Assembly: GCA_038206135.1 (NCBI GenBank)
Contig: JBBRBD010000001.1
Location: forward strand, 1,919-65,918
Source: Patescibacteria group bacterium
Lineage (GTDB): Bacteria; Patescibacteriota; Microgenomatia; UBA8517
Reading direction: 5' to 3'
DNA: 64,000 nucleotides
Part shown: in pieces, positions 1,005 to 56,244 of the stretch
Position numbering within the stretch: the first letter of the stretch is position 1
How the letters are laid out: every line of letters begins with the position of its first letter
Translations under genes and position numbers: made by a program
The notes under the pieces: generated by a model
The model's database searches: none
What the model saw: the letters and a program-made list of their open reading frames with translations, nothing else
What the model was told of the DNA's origin: nothing

Positions 1005-1067
1005 CATTAGCCTCGACTAACCATTTTTTGTTGACAAATCCTCAATCCTCATAGATCATGTCACTTC

Positions 1068-2609
1068 ATGAGTCAAAAACACTCAGGATTCGCTCAGGTT
1101 GCAACAGTTTCAGCAATTGCTGTGTTTGCTAGCTTTTTGTTTTTTAATTCTAAACGTCTTTTTAGACAACATCCAAATCCATCTCCAACTGCGAGTCAAA
1201 CACCAATTTTTACAGAAATGCCCACTCCAACAATGAGTGGAATGCCTACATCGAACACAAACCCAACAGCATCCGCGAGCTCAACACCAACTGCAGCAGC
1301 TATTCCAAACGGATCAACCACAGCAATAATCGGCTTTGGAATCGGTTCTGGAGATGGACCTGAGGTTGGCATTAATTTAGCTGCATTCAACAAAGCGAAA
1401 GTAGATGCAGTAAATGGCGTTTATGCTCGCCTCTGTACTGCACAAGAGCATGACAAAGATATTTGGCATGGCTTAGTAAATCCTGTTGCAAAATGCCACT
1501 ACGATCATGAACATGGTGACGATCCAAATTATGTAAATGATATTTTTGGTACACCAGGCGCATGGTTTGATAAGTCCGGACAATCTATTTCATATCCGTG
1601 GCAAACATTTGCCCTCTCGTCAGACATGAGCGAAGCACAAGCGCTTACTCAGTCTGGTATTGAAGGACAAAAAGAAAACGATTTGAAGCATTATGGTTAT
1701 TATTGGGTTGTTAGACGCGGACAAACATGTGATGGAGGAAAATGGTGTATTACAGACTCACGTTTGCAATTCCATTTTATGTCTTCACACCACAATGAAG
1801 TAGGAGTCCGATTTCATTCATTTTCTTTCGAAGGAAGACTGTGTAAAGATCCAAAAGACGCTAGCACATGTGGGATCTATAGAACTGGCGGTTGGACAGA
1901 CCATGGACAGCTCTTTGTATCCTCAAGCGCGAATTCTTCAGGCTATTTAACACAACCGTGTTGGAATCTCCGCAATTCAGATCCGATACGTGGACAACTT
2001 GTTAATCTTTCATCAGACGGACAATTTTATCCATTAAATAATCAAGGTCTTATGGACGAGTTTAGATGTCACAAAATAATTACTGACTCAATCGTTAAAT
2101 CTATGCCAGATGGACTGGTGAATGAACCTGCTGCAGAATGGTGGACACACGGCGCATCAGATTTTAGATATGTAATTCGGGTGTTCGATCCAATAAGTAA
2201 TGTAGATACAACCTCTCCTACTGGAGTAACTACTCACAATATGCCATTTTGTACAGCAGGCGATGTAACCTGTCGCTGGAACAATTCAGTGATATCTGCT
2301 GGGCAAGGATATACAACACAAATTTACACAAGCTATGGTGGCGTTCGAGTTGATAGCAATAACGATAATAAAACGGACTTAACACAGGGTAAAGTCTATT
2401 TAAATAGATTTGGTAATACAAACAAGAATTGTACAGTTGGTGGGTTAGATTGTATCCCTTTAATCTTAACGAATGTGCAATTGAGTGATTCGCCTATTGG
2501 TGGAAATCAACGCTATTCAAACAAGCAATGTGAGAGCTGTGCAAAAATTGATCATGACATTACTCCAAAAGGTATCCCTTCTTGGATTCAATGGTATTTG
2601 AAGATGTAA
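1068..2609 (+). CDS. hypothetical membrane-anchored/secreted Cys-rich protein with Pro/Thr/Ser-rich linker
   Basis: N-terminal hydrophobic anchor (VATVSAIAVFASFLFF). About 60-aa low-complexity linker (PNPSPTASQTPIFTEMPTPTMSGMPTSNTNPTASASSTPTAAA). Then a ~400-aa domain with more than 20 Cys and a His/Asp cluster (HYDHEHGDDPNY). No recognisable family. Confidence 0.6.
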   Translation: MSQKHSGFAQVATVSAIAVFASFLFFNSKRLFRQHPNPSPTASQTPIFTEMPTPTMSGMPTSNTNPTASASSTPTAAAIPNGSTTAIIGFGIGSGDGPEVGINLAAFNKAKVDAVNGVYARLCTAQEHDKDIWHGLVNPVAKCHYDHEHGDDPNYVNDIFGTPGAWFDKSGQSISYPWQTFALSSDMSEAQALTQSGIEGQKENDLKHYGYYWVVRRGQTCDGGKWCITDSRLQFHFMSSHHNEVGVRFHSFSFEGRLCKDPKDASTCGIYRTGGWTDHGQLFVSSSANSSGYLTQPCWNLRNSDPIRGQLVNLSSDGQFYPLNNQGLMDEFRCHKIITDSIVKSMPDGLVNEPAAEWWTHGASDFRYVIRVFDPISNVDTTSPTGVTTHNMPFCTAGDVTCRWNNSVISAGQGYTTQIYTSYGGVRVDSNNDNKTDLTQGKVYLNRFGNTNKNCTVGGLDCIPLILTNVQLSDSPIGGNQRYSNKQCESCAKIDHDITPKGIPSWIQWYLKM

Positions 2610-2804
2610 CCGTTTTTGATTTGATATACTGCTTGTTACAGTTTTAGGGAATGAAAGGTACTCATTGTGATTAGGCTACTACTTTCAATATTAATGTCTT
2701 TTGCGGTAATTTGGTATTTGGTTGTTTGTCTCTTTGTAATAGTTCTAATATTCATCGTGACATACAACCCTTTCAGCGATAAGTTGAGAGGATGACACTC
2801 CTTT

Positions 2805-2840
2805 AAAAGGGCTGAAGACATTTCAGCCCTTTTGATTTAA
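2805..2840. terminator. putative intrinsic terminator hairpin (12-bp perfect stem AAAAGGGCTGAA / TTCAGCCCTTTT, 4-5 nt loop, followed by TTTTGATTT)
   Basis: Perfect inverted repeat 2805-2816 / 2822-2833 read directly from the sequence. It is followed by a T-rich run and is flanked by A-run and T-run. It sits at the end of a 240-nt non-coding gap after the 1068..2609 gene. Confidence 0.5.
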
Positions 2841-3864: not shown

Positions 3865-4737
3865 ATGCACGAGAGAACAGAAATTTCGGAATATAAACTA
3901 TATAGCGATAGCTGGCTTATTGATAGGTATTTCATGGCAGGCTCTGTAGATGAAGCACTACAAGACACCGAGGAGTATGTTCCATTTTCGTTTGCAGATA
4001 TGCATCGCAAATTGGAGAATGCTGGTATCATCAAGTCCGCCGGAAGACAGACTAGTTTGTCTGAAGCCCTTCATTTTTTTCGAGTAAAACAAATGGAACC
4101 AGGATCTCCGCTTGAATCTATTTATAAAGGAATGCCACTTAATTTTAAAACTTCGATCGCAACGCTTCATCGAATTTACAATCGTATTCTTGAGGCTAAG
4201 TTGAATGTGGTGACCAATAGGTATGCCACCGCATTAATAATCTCTGATGAAGAAAATATGAACAGTGTAATGGTTGGTACTGAACAATACTCCCGTTTGA
4301 AATATGGAAAATTATCTGGTCAACTTACTATTCCGCTTACTTTTTCTAAATTTAATGACACGCCGGGTCAAAGAGTTCTGCGCGTACTTCAGCAGGAAGT
4401 ATTCACAAATGAATCGATCGAGAAACGTTTCTCCGATAGGTCATTCGTGCAGATGCTTCTGTTAAATCTTTCAAATCCTTTTTTAAAATATCGTTTGCTT
4501 GATGTGGAAATTCAATGTTATTCAATTACTATTCCGAAGACGCTGTCAACTTTTTCAAGTTATAAGTTAAGCAACCACCATTTTGTAGAGAAAGAAGAAA
4601 TATTACATACAGTAGATGGATCGTATCGTGAGGGTATACAAGATATTATCAATTTTTCAATAAAACCTTTAATTAAATTGGCACAAACTCCAGTGATGGT
4701 TTCTAGCTTTAATATTTCACTTGAGAAAACGTCTTAA
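3865..4737 (+). CDS. hypothetical soluble protein (290 aa), no recognised family
   Basis: Long uninterrupted ORF of mixed composition with no TM segments and no obvious SD. A TACAAT -10-like hexamer lies 5 nt upstream of the ATG. Confidence 0.5.
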   Translation: MHERTEISEYKLYSDSWLIDRYFMAGSVDEALQDTEEYVPFSFADMHRKLENAGIIKSAGRQTSLSEALHFFRVKQMEPGSPLESIYKGMPLNFKTSIATLHRIYNRILEAKLNVVTNRYATALIISDEENMNSVMVGTEQYSRLKYGKLSGQLTIPLTFSKFNDTPGQRVLRVLQQEVFTNESIEKRFSDRSFVQMLLLNLSNPFLKYRLLDVEIQCYSITIPKTLSTFSSYKLSNHHFVEKEEILHTVDGSYREGIQDIINFSIKPLIKLAQTPVMVSSFNISLEKTS

Positions 4738-5888
4738 AGAAGCGGACCCCAATCTGAAATAGGCATGACATTATTTGAAATAAAAGCGAAACTAAACAGA
4801 AATATTGGAATTAAAATAATGATTGCTCCTACTAAAAACTCTCGTTTTACGAGTTCTTTTCTATAAGCAATTATGAGAAAAGGCACAATAGGAAGTGAAT
4901 ATCGAATTAAATCTCTGTGCGATACAAACAGTGTTGTTGTGTAAAATACTCCGACAAATGCTGAAAGTGCCCATTCTTTTTGAGAGACGAGTTTCATCAG
5001 TCCAATCGCACCGAGAAGATACACGAAAATAATTTCTTCAAGCCAGTGAGTATTCACCCAAGGTTGGGAGTAATTAAATATTTGAAATGGCGGAAAAAAC
5101 AGATGAATATTGTCTCCAGAATTAAAGTATGCAAAAAAGTTTCCAAACTGAATACTATATAAGTAAAATACTGCGATTAACGCTAATGGTATGAGTCCGA
5201 TGAAAACCACACTAGGGTGGATGGACTTGAGCCATTTTTTGTGGTCGTTCGTGATTGCCAAGCTATGAAGACGAGGAACTATAACAGCTACAATCAGCGC
5301 TGCAAAAATCAAAATTCCTGGAGACTTCGTAAACTGAGCAATTGCGCCAAATATTCCTGCGAGTAAATACTGACGTTTCCTGAAATAATACATACAAGCA
5401 ATTATTGCTCCAACAAACAATGGTTCAGGAGAGCCAACTGACCGGACAATAAGCCATCTCGCCGGGAACAAGGCGAATACAAGTGTTAGCCACAGCGCAT
5501 GGTGTTCTTCAACATATTCTTTAGCAAGCTTATAAAACATAAGATGTGCAAATACGCTGGTAACAAGTGTCGTAACAAGCATTCCCCATGGGTATCCGGT
5601 AACTGTGGCTATTATACGAATTAAAAGTGGAAAGAGTGGAAAGTGAGCAGCATAATATTCGTATGGAAGCGAAAATGAGAAATTTTGCAAAATGAGGTTC
5701 TTTTGATACAGCGTTTTAGCAACAACTAAATATAGTGGACCATCGTAATTTGATACAACGACTTGCATGCCTCCTTTTGCCAATGGAATTCCCCAAATAG
5801 CTGGCATCTGTAAATAAAAAGGTGCCCACAAAAGGAATGTAGGGACAATACTCATAAGTGCAACTAGAATGTATGAGCGGAACTTCAT
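4734..5888 (-). CDS. polytopic membrane protein, PIG-V/Gpi18-like mannosyltransferase-like (GT-C superfamily)
   Basis: Multi-TM protein. N-terminal loop motif VVSNYDGPLYLVVAKTLY also occurs in the paralog at 40499 (ANYDGEHYLTIAQFGY). TKSPG motif later in the protein. Only sizeable minus-strand gene in the window. Confidence 0.55.
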   Translation of the reverse strand: MKFRSYILVALMSIVPTFLLWAPFYLQMPAIWGIPLAKGGMQVVVSNYDGPLYLVVAKTLYQKNLILQNFSFSLPYEYYAAHFPLFPLLIRIIATVTGYPWGMLVTTLVTSVFAHLMFYKLAKEYVEEHHALWLTLVFALFPARWLIVRSVGSPEPLFVGAIIACMYYFRKRQYLLAGIFGAIAQFTKSPGILIFAALIVAVIVPRLHSLAITNDHKKWLKSIHPSVVFIGLIPLALIAVFYLYSIQFGNFFAYFNSGDNIHLFFPPFQIFNYSQPWVNTHWLEEIIFVYLLGAIGLMKLVSQKEWALSAFVGVFYTTTLFVSHRDLIRYSLPIVPFLIIAYRKELVKREFLVGAIIILIPIFLFSFAFISNNVMPISDWGPLL

Positions 5889-5939: not shown

Positions 5940-6644
5940 ATGAAACTACCTGAATTGAGCGTGTTTTTTCCAGCTTACAACGAGGAGGGAAATATAACGG
6001 CAACCGTTGAGAAAGCGCTAAAAATTCTTCCAACCGTTGCAACTAAATGGGAACTTCTTGTTGTAAACGATGGCTCAAAGGATAAAACAGGAATGGTAAT
6101 TGATGCGCTATCAAAGCGACACAAAGGATTGAGAGCTATCCAGCACGAAATGAACAGGGGCTATGGTGCTGCAATTAAAAGTGGTCTTTATAATGCTAAA
6201 TACGACTGGATTGTATTTACTGATTCCGACGGTCAATTCGATTTTTCAGAAGTGACCAACTTCATTGATACTCAAGAAAAAACAAAAGCAGATTTGGTTG
6301 TTGGTTATTACAAAAAACGCCAAGTGAGTTTTTTTAAAATTCTCACAAGTAAAATGTGGGAAGTTGCTGTTTTTCTTTTGTTTGGACTTAAAGTCCATGA
6401 TATAGATTGTGGTTTTAAATTAATTAGTAAAAAAATGCTTGACAAAATTCCAGTGCTAGAAAGCGAGCGTGGAGCATTTGTTAGTAGTGAACTGCTTATA
6501 AAATCAAAGCGTTATGGTGCAAAAATTGTAGAAATTCCGATCACCCATTACCCTCGTGTGAAAGGCGAAGGAACTGGCCGTAACATTGATGTCATTATTG
6601 AAAGTTTTAAAGATTTACTAAAATTATGGTTAAAACTTCGCTAA
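5940..6644 (+). CDS. GT2 polyprenol-phosphate sugar synthase (Dpm1/ArnC/GtrB-like)
   Basis: LSVFFPAYNEEGNI, LLVVNDGSKDKT, NRGYGAAIKSG and FTDSDGQFD are canonical GT2 Dpm1-like motifs. It immediately precedes, and overlaps, a GT-C gene. Confidence 0.85.
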   Translation: MKLPELSVFFPAYNEEGNITATVEKALKILPTVATKWELLVVNDGSKDKTGMVIDALSKRHKGLRAIQHEMNRGYGAAIKSGLYNAKYDWIVFTDSDGQFDFSEVTNFIDTQEKTKADLVVGYYKKRQVSFFKILTSKMWEVAVFLLFGLKVHDIDCGFKLISKKMLDKIPVLESERGAFVSSELLIKSKRYGAKIVEIPITHYPRVKGEGTGRNIDVIIESFKDLLKLWLKLR

Positions 6645-14583: not shown

Positions 14584-15033
14584 ATGGATCAGCAAGGATT
14601 CAAGTTTATCATTCCATTTAATGAGGGTGGAGTGTTGGTTCGTCGAATGGATGACATCGCATCGAATCATATACGTATAGAAAAGCATTTCCGAAAACGC
14701 TTTGGATATTTTGTCCCAATAGTAATTGGTCATTTCGAAATGACAGATGATCGATCGACGGGGATAGATATTCTAATTCACGAGCATACCAAAGTTCCAC
14801 TGGCTTTTTTTACATATTGGACGCCTGAATTCATTGGTAAATATCTAGGTGTTATTCTGGATGGACGCGGCAGTATCGGATTAGTCTGTTGCAGTGATAG
14901 TTTTGAAGAAGTTCAGAACGAAATTCATCCATATTGTAGTACTAAAGTGTCTTACCACGATTGTAAACACCAAACTTGGCTTGTGAAAAGTGGAACAGAC
15001 TTTGTGGAAGCTTTCATTACCGCTTGTTCATGA
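14584..15033 (+). CDS. hypothetical small soluble protein (149 aa)
   Basis: GGAGG SD 8 nt upstream of the ATG. No TM segments. Cys/His-containing (LVCCSDSFEE, CSTKVSYHDCKH). Its stop overlaps the downstream start (ATGA). Confidence 0.55.
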   Translation: MDQQGFKFIIPFNEGGVLVRRMDDIASNHIRIEKHFRKRFGYFVPIVIGHFEMTDDRSTGIDILIHEHTKVPLAFFTYWTPEFIGKYLGVILDGRGSIGLVCCSDSFEEVQNEIHPYCSTKVSYHDCKHQTWLVKSGTDFVEAFITACS

Positions 15034-16927: not shown

Positions 16928-18721
16928 ATGAAAAGCACAAAAGACTTCTTAAGGATTAGTATCGAAGTTTTTAAAATATACTTCCAAATCGCAAAGGGAC
17001 TTACGATCGGTGTGATTGTGACCAGTACTATAATGTCACTTCAATCACTAATAAATGCGTATGTTTTGTCTGTCCTTCTAGATAAACTTATAACTGCTGT
17101 ATCACTGAAACAAACAAATATATCAGAGTTATTTCCTATAATTTTTCTGTTTGGTTTAATAAATCTATTTATATTGGTAATTACAAATTTATATGATTAC
17201 TTTTTTACTTTACTCACGAGTCAGGATTCATACAAGCTACGCATTAAACAAATGGACTTTATGGTCGGTCTGGGAATTTCCCAGTTAGAGGATCCTGAGC
17301 TGACGAATAAATCGACGCGATATACGGAGTCTTATTCTAACTTGAGTAACCATTTGTCTACCTTAATTACACTTTTATCCAGTACAGTTTCAATTTTTAT
17401 TTCAGGAGCAATTCTTTTCAAGTTTAAACCTATCGTGATGATTTTATACTTTGTGTTATTTGTATTTAAATACATAAATAACTCTCGCTTCAGGACTCAA
17501 ATTTGGAGACTTATCCGAGAAAATACTGAAAACCGTAGAAATGCTTGGCAATCTGCAGCTTATCTCACAGACCCTTCTAGCGTGAAGGAAATGCTCATAT
17601 CGGGAGGGATAAAGTTTTTAAGAGCAAAGTTTTTTAACTATCAAGAATGGTATTACAAACAATATCGGAAAATACGAACCCGGTGGGCGGCATTTGAATT
17701 TACACACGCAGTTTTTGATATTTCATTATTAATCGTCGGTGTCTACTTCATTCTTGAAATGGGAGTGACAGGAGCAATTACAGTAGGGGCTATCGCGTTT
17801 TATTTAAATACGCTTAGAGGTTTTTCGGAGCAAATTGACAATCTTAGTTATAGAATAGGACGGGCAGTCGAGGTTAGTATTCGAGTTCAAGATTCTCTGG
17901 TTATGTTCGATGAGTACACACCGGAAATTGATGGTAGGAAAAAACTTTCAAATTCCACAAGACCATCTCTAATAACCGTAGAAAATTTAACTTTTTCATA
18001 TCCAAATTCCAATAGTCCAGTACTTCGAAACATCAACCTAACTGTTCACCCTGGTGAAAAAATTGCAATTGTAGGTGAAAATGGTGCAGGGAAAACGACA
18101 CTTATTAAAGTCATAAATCGGATTTACCGCCCTCAAAAGGGACGAGTTCTTTTGGATAATTTTGATATTCAAGATATCCGTATAAAATCTTGGTATCAGA
18201 AAATAGGAGTGCTTTTTCAAGACTACAATACATATCCTCATTTAAATGTTGAAGAAAATGTTGCGATTGGAAAAAATGCGATAGTAAGTATCAACAGAAA
18301 TAAGGTAGTTGAGTCTTTAACTAAAGCAGGAGTATATCCTGATATTGAGAAATACCCGAACCTTTTAAAACAGATATTGAGCGAAAAATATAAAGGGGGT
18401 ATACGTCCCTCTGGAGGACAATGGCAAAAGATTGCTATTGCACGTTTTTTTTACCGAAATGCTCCTATCCTAATTCTCGATGAGCCAACAGCTTCAATTG
18501 ATGCTATTTCTGAAGCACAGATATTTGGAAATATATACAAATTCATGAAAGGTAAGACTGTGATTATAATCTCACATCGCTTTAGCACGGTCAGAAATGC
18601 TGACCGAATATTGGTCCTCGATAAAGGTAAAATTATTGAAGACGGCTCACATGAGGAACTTTTGAAGCTTAACGGTAAGTATGCCCATTCATTTAAGCTT
18701 CAAGCAAAAGGGTATAGTTGA
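16928..18721 (+). CDS. ABC transporter, fused permease/ATPase exporter (MsbA-type, type I exporter)
   Basis: N-terminal 6-TM domain. Walker A GENGAGKTTL, signature SGGQWQKIAIARF, Walker B ILILDEPTASID, H-loop ISHR. Confidence 0.85.
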   Translation: MKSTKDFLRISIEVFKIYFQIAKGLTIGVIVTSTIMSLQSLINAYVLSVLLDKLITAVSLKQTNISELFPIIFLFGLINLFILVITNLYDYFFTLLTSQDSYKLRIKQMDFMVGLGISQLEDPELTNKSTRYTESYSNLSNHLSTLITLLSSTVSIFISGAILFKFKPIVMILYFVLFVFKYINNSRFRTQIWRLIRENTENRRNAWQSAAYLTDPSSVKEMLISGGIKFLRAKFFNYQEWYYKQYRKIRTRWAAFEFTHAVFDISLLIVGVYFILEMGVTGAITVGAIAFYLNTLRGFSEQIDNLSYRIGRAVEVSIRVQDSLVMFDEYTPEIDGRKKLSNSTRPSLITVENLTFSYPNSNSPVLRNINLTVHPGEKIAIVGENGAGKTTLIKVINRIYRPQKGRVLLDNFDIQDIRIKSWYQKIGVLFQDYNTYPHLNVEENVAIGKNAIVSINRNKVVESLTKAGVYPDIEKYPNLLKQILSEKYKGGIRPSGGQWQKIAIARFFYRNAPILILDEPTASIDAISEAQIFGNIYKFMKGKTVIIISHRFSTVRNADRILVLDKGKIIEDGSHEELLKLNGKYAHSFKLQAKGYS

Positions 18722-18748: not shown

Positions 18749-20254
18749 GTGAAACCGACAGCAGCCAAAGAATCAGTTGAAGTTCGAGACCCTGGTGAAA
18801 TTGAGATTGGTATTGAAGATGTAAAGGCGCGTTCTGTTCGTGGAATTGTGGTACTCACTGGTCGCACCTTTTTCTTGCAAATCATAGCTGTCGTTGCCTC
18901 AGGATTCATGTGGGCGTATTTGGGACCAAAAGAGCTTGGAATCTTTTTCATCCTTAATGCAGTAATTAACTTCTTAAATTATTTTTCTGACATCGGCTTG
19001 GCCGCAGCACTTATTCAAAAGAAAAATCACCCTACCGAGACTGATCTTAAAACAACTTTTTTTGTACAAGAACTCTTAGTTGTGGGAATTATTGGTATTG
19101 TAGTAGCATTTACACCTTATTTAACTCAACACTACTCTCTTGACCGTGATGGTGTGATTTTATTATATGCACTCGCGCTTTCGTTCTTCTTGTCATCACT
19201 GAAAAGTATTCCTTCCATTTTGCTTGAGCGAAAATTAGATTTTATCAAACTTACTTTCCCTCAGATTCTAGAACAAGTAGTGTATTACGTAATTTTAGTC
19301 ATTTTGGCGATACAAGGGTATGGCATTAGGAGTTTTACAATTGCTGTCATCGTTCGAGATATTGTTGGGTTAGTCAGTATTTATTGGTTGCAACCGTGGA
19401 AGCCTGGTTTCGCTTTTTCAAAAGAAACACTCAAGGATTTATTCAAATTTGGAATTCCTTATCAAGTAAACACTCTTTTAGCTGCGTTTAAAGACGATGG
19501 CATGACAATTATCTTGGGTGGGATATTAGGCCCTGCAGGCGTAGGTTTTTTGGGAACAGCCCAAAAATTTGCACGGTATCCACTTACTTTTTTCATGGAT
19601 ACTGTCACAAGAGTCACGTTTCCTGCATTTTCTCGTATGCAAGACTCACCTGATCATTTGGCACGAAGTGTAACTCGTTCCATATTCTTTATTTGTTTCC
19701 TGGTGTTCCCATCATTGGTTGGACTTGCAATACTTGCTCCATACATAGTGGAGCTCATTCCTCGATATAATCAATGGAAGCCGGCACTCATTGCGCTTAC
19801 GTTTGTATCAATTAACTTTATGTTTGCCGCAGCAACTACACAGCTTACAAATCTATTGAATGCAATTGGAAAAATAAAAATAACTTTTTTCTTGATGATT
19901 ATGTGGACAGCTCTTACCTGGGCTTTAATCCCATTCTTAGCAACAAAATTTGGAGCTGATGGTGCTGCTCTTGGATATGCACTTGTTGGTTCATCTTCAA
20001 TTGTAGCTATTTTTATAGCTAAGAAATACGTGGATTTTTCACTTTACCATTCTATTGGAAAGCCGCTACTCGGTACTGCAATAATGGCAACCGTAATGCT
20101 TATTATTAAAATGTTTTTGCCGGTAACCACGTACACAATGCTCATTTTGATGCTTGTTGGCGCAGTTGTATATGGAGTCGTAATGGTAGTAATTGTTGGG
20201 GCCTCACTTGTTGAAGATGCTAAAAAAAGTTTCAAAACAGTTATTGGGAAATAG
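18749..20254 (+). CDS. Wzx-type flippase / polysaccharide biosynthesis protein (MOP superfamily)
   Basis: Multi-TM with the N-terminal pattern of Wzx proteins (ASGFMWAYLGPKELGIFF). GTG start at 18749. Confidence 0.7.
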   Translation: MKPTAAKESVEVRDPGEIEIGIEDVKARSVRGIVVLTGRTFFLQIIAVVASGFMWAYLGPKELGIFFILNAVINFLNYFSDIGLAAALIQKKNHPTETDLKTTFFVQELLVVGIIGIVVAFTPYLTQHYSLDRDGVILLYALALSFFLSSLKSIPSILLERKLDFIKLTFPQILEQVVYYVILVILAIQGYGIRSFTIAVIVRDIVGLVSIYWLQPWKPGFAFSKETLKDLFKFGIPYQVNTLLAAFKDDGMTIILGGILGPAGVGFLGTAQKFARYPLTFFMDTVTRVTFPAFSRMQDSPDHLARSVTRSIFFICFLVFPSLVGLAILAPYIVELIPRYNQWKPALIALTFVSINFMFAAATTQLTNLLNAIGKIKITFFLMIMWTALTWALIPFLATKFGADGAALGYALVGSSSIVAIFIAKKYVDFSLYHSIGKPLLGTAIMATVMLIIKMFLPVTTYTMLILMLVGAVVYGVVMVVIVGASLVEDAKKSFKTVIGK

Positions 20255-33597: not shown

Positions 33598-35261
33598 TAA
33601 AAAAATATTCATTATTAATTTTAGTAATTATAATTTTACTTGGTGCTTTACTCCGATTAGTAAATTTAAGCACAATGCCGCCTTCACTAAACTGGGACGA
33701 AATTTCTCATGGGTATAACGCATACTCAATTTTGAGAACTGGTATGGATGAATGGGGTGTACATTTTCCAGTAGCGAACTTCAGGGCGTATGGTGACTAC
33801 CCACTAACCTTAAATTTATATTTAACAGTACCCTTCGTTTGGGCTTTCGGCTTGACTGCTTTTGCGATTCGTTTTCCACATGCGCTTTTAGGAATAGGTA
33901 CTATCATTGTTAGTTACTTACTTTCATATGGAGTAACCAAGAAGAAAGGTGTCAGTTTGGTCGTAGCTTTTTTGGTTTCAGTAGATCCTTGGTATGTTTT
34001 TACCTCTCGGTTTGTCTTGCAGAGCAATTTATCAGTATTTCTACTTACCGCAGGTATGGCTGCATTTGTTCATCGTAAATCGAACAAATATTTGTTGCCA
34101 ATTAGCACATTTTTATTAGGTCTTACACTTTTTTCTTATCATACGACAAGAATATTTACCCCGCTTCTTTTAGTCTCAATCGCGATAATATTTAGAAAAG
34201 AATTTTTCACTAAACTAAATATTTTTATTGCCGTTTTATTTCTTTTACCTCTGCCTTTTATTTTATTAAATCCCAATGCCAGAGCTCGTTCTGCTGAAGT
34301 ATTTCTAATAAATGATGGTTCAGTTGCAGCAATTGAGTATACTAGAAACAACTCATCCCTTCCTGCACTATTCTCAAAGATAATCTACAACAGACCTGCT
34401 TATCTAATTGAACAATCGTTACTACATTATGTTGATTATTTTTCTCCCCAATTTCTTTTTTTAAGGGGAGGAACTCAGTATCAGTTTAGCGTTCCAGATC
34501 AAGGGCTTCTGTATTTGTTCAGCGCGCCATTTTTTTATATTGGATTTATATTGTTAATATACAGAGCAACACGAAAAAAAGACAAACTTTCTCAAATTCT
34601 GCTCATATGGATTCTCTTAGCACCAATTCCTGCAAGTATTACGACAGAACGGTTTGCAGTTCTACGTTCATCTAGTATGTTACCAATACCTGAAGTTCTA
34701 ACTTCGATGGGGTTATATGAAATTGTCGAATTACTACGTAGTAGAAAACTTAAATTATTTTCGTTTCTTGTACCTTCATTTATATTGTTAACATTATTAG
34801 GACTTATACATTACATTTCTATATATACAGAAAGTTATAAGACAAATTATTCATGGGCTTGGCAGTATGGTTACTCACAGGTAGTGCAGTTTTCTCAGAG
34901 TCACTATAATGAATTCGATCAGTTTATTATTACGAAAAAGTTTGGAGAGCCACACGAGTATGTTTTGTTTTATACTGCTTGGAGCCCTAATAAGTATATG
35001 AATGACACTAACTTAGTTCGTTATACGCAATCAAATTGGTGGTGGGTCGATTCTTTTGATAAATATGTGTTTGTAAACGATTGGCAAATTCCAAAGATTG
35101 GGGAGAAGTTTGTTACTGAGCGTAAAGCAATTACTGACTGTGCTACTTTAAAATGTGCACTTATAACATCTGAAGGAAATGCACCTGAAGGTTGGAAAAA
35201 AATTCAAACTATACTATTTTTAGATGGAAAAACGGCATTTGAGATATATGAAAATAAATAA
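33594..35261 (+). CDS. GT-C membrane glycosyltransferase, PMT/ArnT-like (tandem paralog 3 of 5)
   Basis: LNWDEISHGYNAYSILRTGMDEWG, multi-TM. ATGA overlap with the upstream gene. Confidence 0.8.
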   Translation: MIKKYSLLILVIIILLGALLRLVNLSTMPPSLNWDEISHGYNAYSILRTGMDEWGVHFPVANFRAYGDYPLTLNLYLTVPFVWAFGLTAFAIRFPHALLGIGTIIVSYLLSYGVTKKKGVSLVVAFLVSVDPWYVFTSRFVLQSNLSVFLLTAGMAAFVHRKSNKYLLPISTFLLGLTLFSYHTTRIFTPLLLVSIAIIFRKEFFTKLNIFIAVLFLLPLPFILLNPNARARSAEVFLINDGSVAAIEYTRNNSSLPALFSKIIYNRPAYLIEQSLLHYVDYFSPQFLFLRGGTQYQFSVPDQGLLYLFSAPFFYIGFILLIYRATRKKDKLSQILLIWILLAPIPASITTERFAVLRSSSMLPIPEVLTSMGLYEIVELLRSRKLKLFSFLVPSFILLTLLGLIHYISIYTESYKTNYSWAWQYGYSQVVQFSQSHYNEFDQFIITKKFGEPHEYVLFYTAWSPNKYMNDTNLVRYTQSNWWWVDSFDKYVFVNDWQIPKIGEKFVTERKAITDCATLKCALITSEGNAPEGWKKIQTILFLDGKTAFEIYENK

Positions 35262-50582: not shown

Positions 50583-51683
50583 ATGAAAAAGTTTTATTTC
50601 TTCATAGGTACTACAGCTGAATTAATCAAAATTGCACCTGTCATGTCAGAGTTTGAAAAACGGAATATAGAATATAATGTTATTGCCTCAAATCAAAATA
50701 CGCTAAGATTTGAAGAAGTAGAGTCAATTGTGAAAAGAAAGTCTGCAGATTATACTCTTAGAATTCCTCATATAAACGAAAATCTAAATATTTATCTCAA
50801 ATTTATAGTATGGCTAATTAAGACAACAGCTAACTATTATTTATATTTTAGAAGGGAATTTAAAAATTTCAATAAAAAAAATGTCTATTTTATAGTCCAC
50901 GGAGATACTATCTCAGCATTACTTGGCTCAGTAGTATCTAAAATAAACGGTGTTAAAGTAGTTCATGTGGAGGCAGGTTTAAGATCCTTCAATTTTTTTG
51001 AACCCTTCCCTGAAGAATTGTGTAGATATATTATTTCCTCTATTTCCGACATTCATTTTTCTCCAAATTCGTGGGCTATAAAAAATTTGAAGAATAAAAA
51101 AGGAGTAAAGATTAATACATTCAGTAATACAAACTACGAAAGCGTTACAAATGCGTTAAAAGTATTAAATATAACTCCCAAAGATAAAATTACAAAAAGT
51201 AAGTACTTCATATTAGTAATACACAGACAGGAACATATCCTTTTCAACAAACAAATCACTCAAAATATAATCAATACATTTATTCATAATATTAACTCCA
51301 ATTTAAAATGTGTTTTTATTATGCATCCTCTGACTAAAAATTACCTCGTTAATGTAGGAATGTATGAAAAAATATTGCAAAACAAAAATATTGTAATTGT
51401 CGAGAGACTACCTTATATTAATTTTATTGATTTGCTTTCAAAATCTGAATTTATTGCAACAGATGGTGGTAGTAATCAGGAAGATGCATTTTATCTTGGT
51501 AAGCCTTGTTTAGTACTTAGGAAAAGAACTGAGAGAATAGAAGGATTAAAGCAGAATGTTGTTATTGGGGGAAATAATATCGCAAAAATTAACAAATTCA
51601 TAAATGAATATAAAAAATATAAAATTAAATTGCCAAAATATGAACTACTTGCGTCCACAATTATTGTTGACAATCTCACATGA
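50583..51683 (+). CDS. wecB: UDP-N-acetylglucosamine 2-epimerase (WecB/MnaA-like)
   Basis: GTTAELIKIAP (compare GTRPEAIKMAP), VHGDTISALLG, HVEAGLRS (the HVEAGLRT signature), HFSPNS, TDGGSNQEDAFYLGKPCLVLRKRTERIE (compare [28 protein letters not shown]). Confidence 0.8.
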   Translation: MKKFYFFIGTTAELIKIAPVMSEFEKRNIEYNVIASNQNTLRFEEVESIVKRKSADYTLRIPHINENLNIYLKFIVWLIKTTANYYLYFRREFKNFNKKNVYFIVHGDTISALLGSVVSKINGVKVVHVEAGLRSFNFFEPFPEELCRYIISSISDIHFSPNSWAIKNLKNKKGVKINTFSNTNYESVTNALKVLNITPKDKITKSKYFILVIHRQEHILFNKQITQNIINTFIHNINSNLKCVFIMHPLTKNYLVNVGMYEKILQNKNIVIVERLPYINFIDLLSKSEFIATDGGSNQEDAFYLGKPCLVLRKRTERIEGLKQNVVIGGNNIAKINKFINEYKKYKIKLPKYELLASTIIVDNLT

Positions 51684-52732: not shown

Positions 52733-54739
52733 ATGTTTGTCACCAATTATATGAACAAAATAATTTTGTCATCATTTTTATATTATTCTAGGAAGATAAA
52801 AGGTCACTTCATAATTATATTTTTTATAATACTATCAGTTATTCTTGTACAGGCATGGTTTTCGCATCACAATTTAATCGCGACAGGTGAGGAAGGGTTA
52901 ATGTTTTATAATCCTCAAATTTTACTGTCTAAATTTGGTTCAAGTTGGATAGATACAGGTCTAGGAGCCCCAAACCCCGGTTTTATTCCAAGAATTCCTT
53001 TTTTTTGGTTACTTTCAGCTCTCAACAGTTTATTCCCGTCATGGATTAGTGAGTTAATTGTATTTGCAACTTTACTTTCAGTAGGTGGAATTGGCACCTA
53101 CTATTTGGGTAGTAAATATATATGGAGTAATAGGATGTCAAACTTTATTGCAGCCAACTTCTACATTTTAAATTTGTATACTCAAACACAAATTTTTAAC
53201 AGATTTCTTACACCATCAATGTTTGCTTGGAGCTTTTTACCATGGTTTATATACCTTTGGCTAAACTGGATAAAGATTGGAAAATTAAAGCAAATTATTT
53301 ACTTTGTTCTCTGCTGTTTACTTTTTTCAAATATGTATTCATCGCCGGCGAATGTAATCACTATGTGGCTGCCAGCAGCAATTCTTTCATTATCTTTATT
53401 CAAAAAATCTGAATGGAAGGTTTATTTATTTCGATTTACTTTAGGCATTTTTTTGTGGTTACTTGCGAATTTGTGGTGGCTATATCCGATTATAACAATA
53501 GGAAGTGATACATTTTCTGAGGTTTTTACACTAAAATATAATATAGACTCGCTCTCAAGTGTATCGAGTCAGTTCGATTGGTGGCATTACCTTGTTTTCT
53601 ATCATTGGTTGTATATGTCGCCAACTGGACCTTGGGGAATATTATATACATTGCCTCATCGCATATTTATTTCCTTCATTCCGCTGTTTTTTCTACCCGT
53701 AGGCTTAATTAAAACACCAAGGAGTAATATTAAATATTTCTTAATAATTTTATTACTTCTGTCATGGTTTATTATAAAAGGAACAAATCCACCTCTAGGA
53801 ACTCGCTTTTACACTTTATTATTTTCTGCATCTAGTTTGTTTGAGGTATTTAGAAATCCATTTGAAAAATTTGGAATAGTCTGGTTACTGATATATTCAT
53901 TTTTCTTTGGGGCAGGGTTATCATGGTTTATTGCTAAAAATTCAAACACTCTAAAAAAGATTATTGGATATACTTCAATGTTTATAGTTTTTTATATAGT
54001 AGTGAAACCTATGTGGAATGGACAAATATATCAAGTTAATACGAAAGTTACAGTGCCTAGTTATTACACAAATTTAAACGAATTTTTAAAAAACACAAAA
54101 AATGATAGTAGGGTGGTGCTTTTGCCATTAATTGGAGGAGATTCAGTTAAATATAATTGGGGTTATCAGGGCATAGATGCATCTGATGTACTTATACAAA
54201 AAGAATCGCTCTCAAGAGTATTACCACAAACACTGGCAGACGTAGAACGATCAAAGTTCAAAGTTAGTTTTAATAGTGGTAAAGATTTTAGGAAAGAGCT
54301 GGAGGACATGAATATTGAATATCTTCTTGTTCAAAATGATTTAGATTATGTAACTAGTGATGCAAGTTCATCTGCATCAGTTTCAAAACGATTAATATCA
54401 TCAGCATTACAGAAAGTTACCTCTATTGGACCAATCGATATATATAAATACGAACAAACTAATCCTGGGCTCTTTGTAATTGAAAATGGCGAAAAATCTG
54501 TAGTTAGCTACACTAAATTGTCGAATACACACTATCGTGTTTATGTAAAAAACGCTAACAGTGAAGCTATCCTAGTATTTCGAGAAACTTATCACAAAAA
54601 TTGGCATGCTACATTGAATGATAAATTAATATCAGATCACTATATTTGGGAAGGTTATGGAAACAGCTGGAAATTACATAATAGCGGAGATTATGCAGTT
54701 GAAGTAACATTTCCTACAATGCCATGGAATCATTTGTAA
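52733..54739 (+). CDS. large polytopic membrane protein, DUF3367/AftD-like (arabinofuranosyltransferase-like GT-C candidate)
   Basis: 668 aa. N-terminal LIATGEEGLMFYNPQ...SSWIDTGLGAPNPGFIPRIPFFW, more than 12 TM, and a large C-terminal soluble domain. Paralog of the partial gene at 63236. Confidence 0.5.
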   Translation: MFVTNYMNKIILSSFLYYSRKIKGHFIIIFFIILSVILVQAWFSHHNLIATGEEGLMFYNPQILLSKFGSSWIDTGLGAPNPGFIPRIPFFWLLSALNSLFPSWISELIVFATLLSVGGIGTYYLGSKYIWSNRMSNFIAANFYILNLYTQTQIFNRFLTPSMFAWSFLPWFIYLWLNWIKIGKLKQIIYFVLCCLLFSNMYSSPANVITMWLPAAILSLSLFKKSEWKVYLFRFTLGIFLWLLANLWWLYPIITIGSDTFSEVFTLKYNIDSLSSVSSQFDWWHYLVFYHWLYMSPTGPWGILYTLPHRIFISFIPLFFLPVGLIKTPRSNIKYFLIILLLLSWFIIKGTNPPLGTRFYTLLFSASSLFEVFRNPFEKFGIVWLLIYSFFFGAGLSWFIAKNSNTLKKIIGYTSMFIVFYIVVKPMWNGQIYQVNTKVTVPSYYTNLNEFLKNTKNDSRVVLLPLIGGDSVKYNWGYQGIDASDVLIQKESLSRVLPQTLADVERSKFKVSFNSGKDFRKELEDMNIEYLLVQNDLDYVTSDASSSASVSKRLISSALQKVTSIGPIDIYKYEQTNPGLFVIENGEKSVVSYTKLSNTHYRVYVKNANSEAILVFRETYHKNWHATLNDKLISDHYIWEGYGNSWKLHNSGDYAVEVTFPTMPWNHL

Positions 54740-56244
54740 AGTCTAGAAAGTTCGATTTTCTTGTCGTAGTTATACTAATCGGAATTACCTTTTACTTTCT
54801 TCGAGGATTTCTAAAATTTGGAATTTGCTGCGACGATTATTTTTTGTTATATGCAGTAAAAAACAAACTTACATATAACCCATGGATGATAACTGATTAC
54901 ATAGTTGGCCCATACTCTGGTCAATACATCCTTATAGGTGTATTGAATAAAGTAGTACATTACAATTCCTATTATTACTTCTTCACTTCTATCTTGTTGA
55001 GAGCTTGTGTGTCAATTTCCCTGTACTTACTAACTAAGTATATTACGACAAATAAAGTTCTAGCGTTTATTGCTGGAGTATTATTTTCTATTCAATATGC
55101 AGGTATACAAACAACTGAAGCAGTGGTTAATTCAAGTAACTATGTATCTTTATTTTTTTGGATAATATCCTTTCAATTTTTGTTAAGATATTATTTTGAT
55201 TCAAAAAGATACTACTTAAACTTTTTTTATTTTTTATTATTTGCATCAATTTCATTAATAGTAGCTACTTCTAGAGCAAACGGCATTATTTTTGTATTTT
55301 TTATTTTAGAATTTATTTTTTTGATTTTTAAAAAAACAACATATAAATTATCAGCGTTAAGATTATTCTTCTTTTTTACTCTACTTTATTTAATAAAGAT
55401 AATCGGTTTTTTTAAACCAGTTGGAAGTGCAAATGTAAATCCCTTGTTAAGTATGGAGAAATCAATAAATTCATTGTTTGCCGCAAAACTATGGTTATCA
55501 TATTTTGTAAAAAACATTGTAGAGATTATAGTTCCTCCACGATATTCAAGTGCTGTAAATATATGGGTGTTTTGTGTCCTTATATCTCTAATATTATTTT
55601 ATACTTATGTACGCTCCAATGAGAAATATCGAATTGTCCTATTAGTTTCAATTAGTTGGTTCTTCGCCTTTATGCTGGCACCATATACTTATTATCCAAA
55701 TTCTTATAATGAAGTAACTTCTCGATATCTGCTTTTCCCTTCAATTGGCATTTTAATTATTATATCTTTATTTTTAGAGACACTTTTTAAAGAAAAATTG
55801 TTGTTTTATAAGATATCAGCAGTAAGTATTTGTGCATTGCTATTAATTATAAACACAGTAAGTATTAACAATTTTATATCCGATGTAAGTGTATATCGTA
55901 ATAATGAGAAAATCGAAGCTATCTTTAAAGTTATGAATGCTGAAGTCTCAAAAAGCATTGGTACGAAAAGACCACTTATATATATACAATCTGATGATTC
56001 CACATTTGTTTATTTTGCTGTGCTTTATGGCGGTCAGGAGCGATTTTCTTTGAGAAATCAATATTTTGATACTGCATACTTTCCATTCATTATTACTGAT
56101 AGACTTTCAATACCTGATGAGATTATTAAAAATAATATATCTGTCAATGATTTTTATTCATTTAATATAGTGTCTGGGAATGCAATATCTAGTACTGTAG
56201 AGGAAAGGAAAAAATATTTTTATGAAACTACTAGATTACATTAA
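54724..56244 (+). CDS. polytopic membrane protein, unclassified (GT-C-like candidate, DD loop motif)
   Basis: About 12 TM. First loop GICCDDYFLLYAVKN. Paralogous to the 56222 product. Confidence 0.5.
   Translation: MESFVKSRKFDFLVVVILIGITFYFLRGFLKFGICCDDYFLLYAVKNKLTYNPWMITDYIVGPYSGQYILIGVLNKVVHYNSYYYFFTSILLRACVSISLYLLTKYITTNKVLAFIAGVLFSIQYAGIQTTEAVVNSSNYVSLFFWIISFQFLLRYYFDSKRYYLNFFYFLLFASISLIVATSRANGIIFVFFILEFIFLIFKKTTYKLSALRLFFFFTLLYLIKIIGFFKPVGSANVNPLLSMEKSINSLFAAKLWLSYFVKNIVEIIVPPRYSSAVNIWVFCVLISLILFYTYVRSNEKYRIVLLVSISWFFAFMLAPYTYYPNSYNEVTSRYLLFPSIGILIIISLFLETLFKEKLLFYKISAVSICALLLIINTVSINNFISDVSVYRNNEKIEAIFKVMNAEVSKSIGTKRPLIYIQSDDSTFVYFAVLYGGQERFSLRNQYFDTAYFPFIITDRLSIPDEIIKNNISVNDFYSFNIVSGNAISSTVEERKKYFYETTRLH

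Follow-up and report, generated by a model that had tools for sequence, protein, structure and literature searches.

Actinobacterial Pmt enzymes (GT39) O-mannosylate Pro/Thr-rich regions of proteins exported by the Sec pathway, with Apa of Mycobacterium tuberculosis and Rv1002c as an example. The three-component systems that act on teichoic acids have components of the CsbB/GtcA/YfhO type. In Caldicellulosiruptor bescii a GT39 gene, Cbes_1864, lies near celA; when it is deleted the secreted cellulases are no longer glycosylated, and O-glycosylation is predicted to fall on their Thr/Pro linkers (PMC6151902). GT2/GtrA-type flippase/GT-C three-component systems glycosylate teichoic acids (PMC5836110). 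The subject here is a 64,000-nucleotide stretch of a Patescibacteria genome (contig JBBRBD010000001.1; the whole stretch is called the window), in which a gene at 1068..2609 encodes a protein with a Pro/Thr/Ser-rich linker in the neighbourhood of an array of PMT-like GT-C genes. An earlier sequence-only reading proposed this protein as a candidate substrate for O-glycosylation. Its globular domain belongs to an unnamed, uncharacterised family common to Patescibacteria and Chloroflexota, and roughly even odds (about 0.5) are given to the protein being a surface-displayed, metal-dependent extracellular enzyme that acts on glycans or cell-envelope polymers.

Like CelA and other exo-enzymes of C. 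bescii, the window protein would be secreted, has a Pro/Thr(/Ser) linker and has PMT-like GT-C coding sequence nearby in the genome; both cases imply a lipid-phosphate sugar donor. Unlike that of CelA, its globular domain is not a known glycoside hydrolase (GH) or carbohydrate-binding module (CBM). In place of a single GT39 gene the window has eight divergent GT-C paralogues in a glycopolymer-type locus, and glycosylation, which was demonstrated in C. bescii, is here a prediction only. With Apa/Rv1002c the similarity would be that of a Sec-exported protein with a disordered Pro/Thr-rich acceptor region and the presence of a GT2 gene resembling those for polyprenol-phosphate-sugar synthases. 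However, the phylum is another one, the window GT-C proteins are not established GT39 orthologues and the GT2-GtrA product is far below synthase cut-offs (22–30 bits for curated polyprenol-phosphate-sugar synthase families with cut-offs of 325–500). The locus also resembles the teichoic acid system (PMC5836110) in gene content: a GT2 carrying a GtrA domain, numerous GT-C membrane proteins, and flippases. That system modifies wall polymers and not proteins, which gives the array an alternative role that does not involve the protein studied.

The design of the protein (an anchor, a Pro/Thr/Ser linker and a globular ectodomain) is ordinary; the ectodomain belongs to a family that has no detectable relative, shows enzyme-like conservation and is largely confined to two phyla. 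The features of the protein are as follows.

1068..2609, plus strand: open reading frame (ORF) of 513 amino acids, with an identical protein on record (P0001; a 160-kb NCBI contig and a Logan contig)
1089..1145, plus strand: N-terminal hydrophobic segment, residues 8–26, FAQVATVSAIAVFASFLFF (Kyte-Doolittle 2.0 over 19 residues)
1167..1325, plus strand: disordered Pro/Thr/Ser-rich linker, residues 34–86 (from composition and the predicted local distance difference test, pLDDT)
1350..2606, plus strand: conserved globular domain, residues ~95–513, mostly beta, with 7 predicted disulfides (from homologues and an AlphaFold2 model, pLDDT ~88)
1425..1937, plus strand: most conserved core, residues ~120–290 (distant matches align to residues 120–290 of the query)
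1494..1526, plus strand: family signature C-H-Y-D-H-E-H-G-D-D-P, residues 143–153 (from the alignment of 253 homologues)
2352..2378, plus strand: Asp/Asn-rich loop DSNNDNKTD, residues 429–437 (family consensus D.D.DG..D)

The ORF to which the sequence-only reading had drawn attention is real and lies on the plus strand. The core of the domain carries H128, H134, C143, H147, H149, E203, K207, H208, R232, H236, R248, H250 and E255; its last part, at residues 211–285, is an antiparallel beta-meander of five strands (211–216, 227–236, 249–259, 268–278 and 281–285). Across the 253 aligned homologues, which reach down to ~28% identity, C143, H147, H149, P153, G161, E203, H208, R232, H236, H250 and W358 do not vary when conservation is given to two decimals; it is at least 93% for H128 (94%), H134, K207, R248, E255, W178 and others. 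The His/Asp-rich stretch to which attention had already been drawn is present as HYDHEHGDDPNY at residues 144–155. The HxH element of the signature is a candidate metal-binding site. Y145 is swapped for His, Phe or Trp in some members. Such a pattern of invariant His, Glu, Arg and Lys is typical of an active site, and not of a structural or S-layer protein. [HxH motifs of the metallo-beta-lactamase (HxHxD), cupin, M23/LAS peptidase and alpha-carbonic anhydrase kinds were considered and set aside, as there is no profile or fold match to any of them.]

The number of cysteines in the protein is 14, and not the more than 20 with which the domain had been credited. They fall into seven sequence-local pairs. 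Six were identified from co-occurrence in the 253 homologues (221–227, phi 0.75; 259–268, 0.88; 298–334, 0.98; 395–402, 0.94; 455–462, 1.0; 488–491, 1.0), and both members of the seventh, C123 and C143, are near-invariant. The pairs are predicted to form extracytoplasmic disulfides, fitting an oxidising location. The Asp/Asn-rich loop at residues 429–437 is a possible Ca2+-binding loop; its matches are weak (EF-hand S100, E=0.095; TSP3_bac, E=2.1).

An AlphaFold2 model of the window protein, built from an alignment of 36 sequences, is compact and confident over residues ~90–513 (pLDDT of this block mostly 85–98, ~88; predicted template modelling score, pTM, 0.79). A second model, that of the 357-amino-acid relative P0163, has a pLDDT of 85.4 and a pTM of 0.85, and both models are compact and beta-rich. 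Foldseek comparison of the two with the PDB, and of the first with BFVD, gave nothing at E≤0.001 (best E 2.0, 0.37 and 0.49; template modelling (TM) scores <0.15). No match to the protein was obtained with Pfam, NCBIfam or PDB sequences at E≤10, or with PADLOC or PHROGs at E≤1, and a Pfam scan of 40 diverse family members at E≤10 yielded no recurring weak family. Searches of PDB sequences with phmmer and with profiles hit nothing but fused modules or short loops. [Among these, AaBglC, aligned through an N-terminal part outside the core, and VEGF and S100 (Asp-rich loop) were dismissed.] A description of the family was not found in literature searches. That the protein has no recognisable family, as the sequence-only reading had it, thus held through the Pfam, NCBIfam, PHROG, PADLOC, PDB sequence and Foldseek searches. 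Neither an assignment to an intracellular enzyme family nor the lack of an N-terminal hydrophobic segment emerged.

The segment F8–F26 is the sole strongly hydrophobic one in the protein and is read as a signal anchor or an uncleaved signal peptide. An equivalent N-terminal segment is present in 203 of 231 family members, and classical signal peptides occur in relatives (P0006, with LHA before AD at the junction; P0018, with AAA before QS). Together with the seven co-occurring Cys pairs these features support the proposal that the protein is exported or anchored. [A type IV pilin-like protein with a class III signal peptide (processing motif G|F-x-x-x-E before the hydrophobic segment) was considered and rejected: the N-terminus has KHSG-FAQVA, with Ala and not Glu at +5. 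SGFAQ is shared by the closest relative, P0002, only.] Residues 1–85 are disordered in the model (pLDDT <50). Residues 34–86 include 10 Pro, 12 Thr and 8 Ser, in all 30 of 53 (57%), and form the only segment rich in these residues among the ORFs of the window; a stretch of comparable richness is found in just 44 of the 231 members. The linker had been foreseen correctly apart from its length, which is ~50 residues and not ~60 (the string quoted for it by the sequence-only reading is residues 36–85). It is regarded as a spacer and a possible O-glycosylation region.

The family is substantial. In all, 136 relatives match the C-terminal ~80% of the protein at 36–70% identity, an exhaustive search gave 332 clusters (clustered at 50% identity) that contain the domain, and 233 matches were obtained with a profile; none of the relatives has a Pfam domain over the core. 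In a survey of contigs from one genome per species, 62 loci with the family were found, 50 of them in Chloroflexota (Anaerolineae, Aggregatilineales, Ardenticatenaceae, Promineifilaceae and others) and 9 in Patescibacteria (Woesebacteria, Saccharibacteria, Dojkabacteria and Daviesbacteria). The remaining 3 are from Gaiella, 'Bacteroidetes' and an unclassified metagenome-assembled genome (MAG). A Woesebacteria MAG has the closest of these loci, at 58% identity. In a neighbour-joining tree (no support values) the Patescibacteria are in about six separate places among Chloroflexota sequences, which suggests repeated exchange between the two groups, or old paralogy. Some Chloroflexota have tandem copies (L053 656–3168; L057 6046–9206; L062 5748–8992).

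The modules to which the domain is fused give a hint of its setting. In P0002 (70% identical) it is joined to CBM96, an alginate-specific binding module (PMC9971899). Other partners are PA14/GLEYA, LysM, CHB_HEX_C_1 with Fn3_assoc, a PF00756 (CE1-type) esterase with PKD, long CarboxypepD_reg/SdrD_B/SpaA stalks and, in P0049, cohesin with dockerin. In their CBM96, PA14, LysM, CHB_HEX_C, CE1-type esterase or dockerin, and in having a cohesin neighbour, family members are like modular carbohydrate-active and cellulosome-type dockerin enzymes such as the CBM96-bearing alginate lyases (PMC9971899). In contrast to those enzymes, the domain is without a sequence or Foldseek relative in any GH, polysaccharide lyase (PL), carbohydrate esterase (CE) or auxiliary activity (AA) family with a structure. 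At 26 Anaerolineae loci the product of the gene next to it has a signal peptide, a cohesin domain (Pfam E = 1e-10) and, at its C-terminus, a transmembrane helix (L021 5139–5984 is an example of the pairing, with 25 other Anaerolineae loci). The adjacent gene for a membrane-anchored cohesin points to display of the dockerin-bearing homologue on the Anaerolineae surface by cohesin–dockerin pairing, outside the classical cellulosome context. Unlike these Chloroflexota homologues, the window protein has no CBM, dockerin or nearby cohesin; it has an anchor and a linker instead.

From the fusion architectures, which match those of polymer-active enzymes displayed at the surface, and the invariant His/Glu/Arg/Lys set together, a metal-dependent extracellular enzyme is inferred. 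In the mechanism proposed, the N-terminal hydrophobic segment would insert in the membrane via the Sec pathway and the disordered Pro/Thr/Ser spacer of ~50 residues would hold the rest of the protein away from it. The globular domain of ~420 residues would be stabilised by its seven sequence-local disulfides, and in its N-terminal half H134, H147, H149, H208, H236 and H250 (with H128), E203, E255, K207, R232 and R248 would make up a metal-dependent active site, the substrate being a glycan or cell-envelope polymer. The window protein would then be a minimal version of the family: membrane anchor, spacer and domain. Its linker may also be O-glycosylated, which is outside the core of this explanation.

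Several points weigh against an enzyme of this sort. Metal binding, catalysis and the class of substrate are deduced, and lie a step beyond the observed anatomy, conservation, family-wide export signals, domain fusions and lack of known relatives; that the conserved His residues come together in space is likewise proposed. The evidence from fusions is indirect because carbohydrate-binding and stalk modules occur in adhesins and proteases too. Outside Anaerolineae the gene neighbourhoods give no functional hint, and the source names for homologues are 'hypothetical' or refer to the fused modules, none of the homologues being characterised. There is also the distribution of charge around the hydrophobic segment, with K4 before it and K29, R30 and R33 after it, which is contrary to the positive-inside rule for an N-in/C-out orientation.

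The protein could instead be chiefly an acceptor for the neighbouring GT-C proteins, with the GT2-GtrA product making a polyprenol-phosphate sugar, a GT-C moving the sugar to Thr or Ser of the linker and the resulting glycoprotein joining a surface layer. The composition and disorder of the linker, singular in the window as it is, the GT2+GtrA gene directly upstream, the eight ORFs matching PMT_2/PMT and the precedents of C. bescii and of the actinobacterial Pmt enzymes are all in keeping with this, and glycosylation of the linker by a neighbouring GT-C is plausible in itself. As the main function it is unlikely, however. The adjacency is conserved in none of the 62 other loci: around the 62 homologues, to a distance of ±8 kb, there is no relative of the window neighbours (GT2-GtrA, three PMT_2, GT2, exonuclease and DHH), and no PMT neighbour is in the contexts of P0004 and P0006 (65% and 58% identical). 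The gene looks like a transcription unit of its own, with unrelated genes between it and the array. The tie to the array that had been proposed does not extend beyond position. The GT-C paralogues are marginal PMT matches, and none reaches the cut-off of a curated protein-glycosylation family. The array also contains a Wzx-like flippase and an ABC transporter, as glycopolymer loci do, and teichoic acids are also glycosylated by GT2/GtrA-type flippase/GT-C systems (PMC5836110); the paralogues could equally decorate wall polymers. The scarcity of comparable linkers in the family is a further argument against. As to a surface layer, Pfam detects no domain in the protein and hence no known anchoring module such as SLH; the S-layer-type protein envisaged by the sequence-only reading is without support (no SLH or similar module in Pfam or NCBIfam at E≤10), and the conservation is enzyme-like.

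Given a similarly low probability is a non-catalytic role for the domain, as an adhesin or ligand-binding module that attaches to a host cell or to extracellular polymers, in accord with an episymbiotic lifestyle, its His, Trp and Arg being a binding site. In some homologues (P0167, 1623 amino acids) long CarboxypepD_reg/SdrD_B/SpaA stalks carry the domain at their tip; it is fused elsewhere to the PA14/GLEYA modules that are typical of adhesins and has several conserved Trp residues; P0006 is near a sortase and a Laminin_G_3 protein. Yet the seven His, two Glu, two Arg and one Lys kept invariant or nearly so over the 253 sequences are more typical of catalysis, homologues that already have binding modules (CBM96, LysM, PA14) make a second binding domain less economical, and the family is common also in free-living filamentous Chloroflexota. 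A copper or iron redox metalloenzyme of new fold, loosely like lysyl oxidase or copper amine oxidase, with an HxH strand and further His, is highly improbable. The lysyl oxidase copper site is H-x-x-H-x-H-x-H, which C-H-Y-D-H-E-H resembles in pattern, though this is no more than a lead; seven histidines are conserved, and copper amine oxidases recur among the non-significant Foldseek matches. But those matches are noise (E 0.58–6.5, TM-score ≤0.14, root-mean-square deviation >24 Å), LOXL2 is absent from the Foldseek lists and Pfam Lysyl_oxidase and Cu_amine_oxid give no match at E≤10. Replacement of Y145 by His, Phe or Trp in some members argues against a Tyr-derived cofactor.

To return to the surface enzyme acting on glycans or envelope polymers, a bolder version of it is doubtful: a new-fold class of extracellular multi-His metalloenzymes (polysaccharide lyases, hydrolases or oxidases, for example), mainly in Patescibacteria and Chloroflexota and repeatedly exchanged between them, with cohesin–dockerin display in Anaerolineae and, in the window, an anchor and a linker glycosylated by the local GT-C array. 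Surface domains that await characterisation are frequent in these lineages. With their tiny genomes and dependence on other cells, Patescibacteria have few conserved surface proteins, and these are prime candidates for nutrient uptake or attachment. The family is shared with abundant Chloroflexota of sludge and sediment, where it is part of a cohesin–dockerin display, and once its activity is defined, the processing of extracellular polymers would gain a new domain, catalytic or binding. The gene is also a handy test substrate for whether proteins or wall polymers are what the many PMT_2-type GT-C paralogues in Patescibacteria glycosylate.

Sequences flanking the gene give it the look of an independent unit, with a promoter-like site and a terminator of its own:

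1031..1059, plus strand: promoter-like site TTGACA-17 nucleotides-GATCAT (consensus match only, 10/12)
2667..2795, plus strand: hydrophobic small ORF of 42 amino acids with a GTG start, MIRLLLSILMSFAVIWYLVVCLFVIVLIFIVTYNPFSDKLRG, between the gene and the terminator
2803..2835, plus strand: strong hairpin running into a U-rich tail, UUUUGAUUU (folding energy compared with shuffles)

The promoter-like site is the best one near the gene, though such sites are no more numerous in the region than in shuffled sequence. Since it ends 8 nucleotides ahead of the ATG, the leader of the mRNA may be very short or missing altogether; upstream of the start codon (1031–1068) no Shine-Dalgarno sequence can be seen. 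The hairpin is ~200 nucleotides downstream of the gene and, at -21.5 kcal/mol (z = -6.2; none of 200 shuffles equally stable), is the likely intrinsic terminator of the unit. The 42-amino-acid ORF is a putative coding sequence with a GAAAGG element upstream and may be co-transcribed with the gene. Its only match is the contig of its own genome, and it was not found near homologues elsewhere. A public annotation has instead a gene for 61 amino acids on the opposite strand at 2636–2821.

That the gene is next to a PMT-like locus, as had been proposed, is correct in so far as a GT2+GtrA gene is upstream and the array is downstream, but the first PMT_2 gene is 4 kb away, beginning at 6626, and unrelated genes intervene. 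The order downstream is a 3′-5′ exonuclease, a hypothetical gene, a minus-strand membrane protein, a GT2 and then the PMT_2. The membrane protein (4734–5888, minus strand) is polytopic, has 384 amino acids and is the sole large ORF on that strand; the NCBIfam model 'AZOBR_p60025 family cell surface glycopolymer formation protein' matches it below threshold (43 bits, cut-off 150). Genes other than those for GT-C proteins include:

75–1004: GT2+GtrA gene, directly upstream of the gene studied (Pfam)
16928–18721: ABC transporter, among the array genes
18749–20254: Wzx-like flippase, among the array genes

The Pfam match of the GT2+GtrA gene begins at profile position 62, so its 5′ end is probably cut by the window edge. 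Eight ORFs, starting at 6626, 9179, 10750, 12966, 27227, 30293, 31906 and 33594, match Pfam PMT_2 or PMT at E≤1e-3, and five exceed a gathering score; four paralogues pass that of PMT, narrowly (26–28 bits, threshold 22.7), and four that of PMT_2. These paralogues have no relative among PDB sequences, and their NCBIfam matches, to Agl23-type models, all stay below cut-off. Several GT2 genes are interspersed with them. Of other array ORFs of 420–620 amino acids, those at 14976, 20193 and 29011 are without a Pfam match; there is also one at 35224. From this content the region 5940–36921 is read as a very large envelope-glycan locus.

No conserved neighbour other than the cohesin protein of Anaerolineae was found at the 62 loci. 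The neighbours at the Patescibacteria loci, on a reading of their sequences, are mutually unrelated (P-type ATPase, restriction-modification-type enzymes, nuclease and MurG), and the context of the distant member P0163 is uninformative. In L004 (10339–15824), L036 (9728–12169) and L037 (6241–8166), again as read from sequence, the homologue is beside P-type ATPase-like and restriction-modification-type proteins, and a cluster of ATPase-like ORFs is common to L003 and L004. This would suggest a variable genomic region around several of the Patescibacteria homologues.

The gene had also been judged by eye to be richer in guanine plus cytosine (GC) than its surroundings, and this is so. Its GC content of 0.405 is the highest of the 49 window ORFs of at least 150 amino acids (mean 0.340, standard deviation 0.028), and that of the linker is 0.46. 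The excess sits at codon position 2 (0.465), and GC at the third position is ordinary (0.278, compared with a mean of 0.265 and a standard deviation of 0.030 for the same ORFs). It is therefore an effect of a composition rich in Ser, Thr, Pro, Gly, Ala and Cys and not a signal of foreign DNA; recent horizontal acquisition was rejected on the ordinary third-position value. Over the window, 48 of the 49 ORFs are on the plus strand and the cumulative GC skew climbs steadily from 1 to 64000. GC itself drops from ~0.37–0.40 in the first 20 kb to ~0.27–0.32 beyond 50 kb, where the ORFs at 50583–51683 and 54724–56244 (GC ~0.28) are examples.

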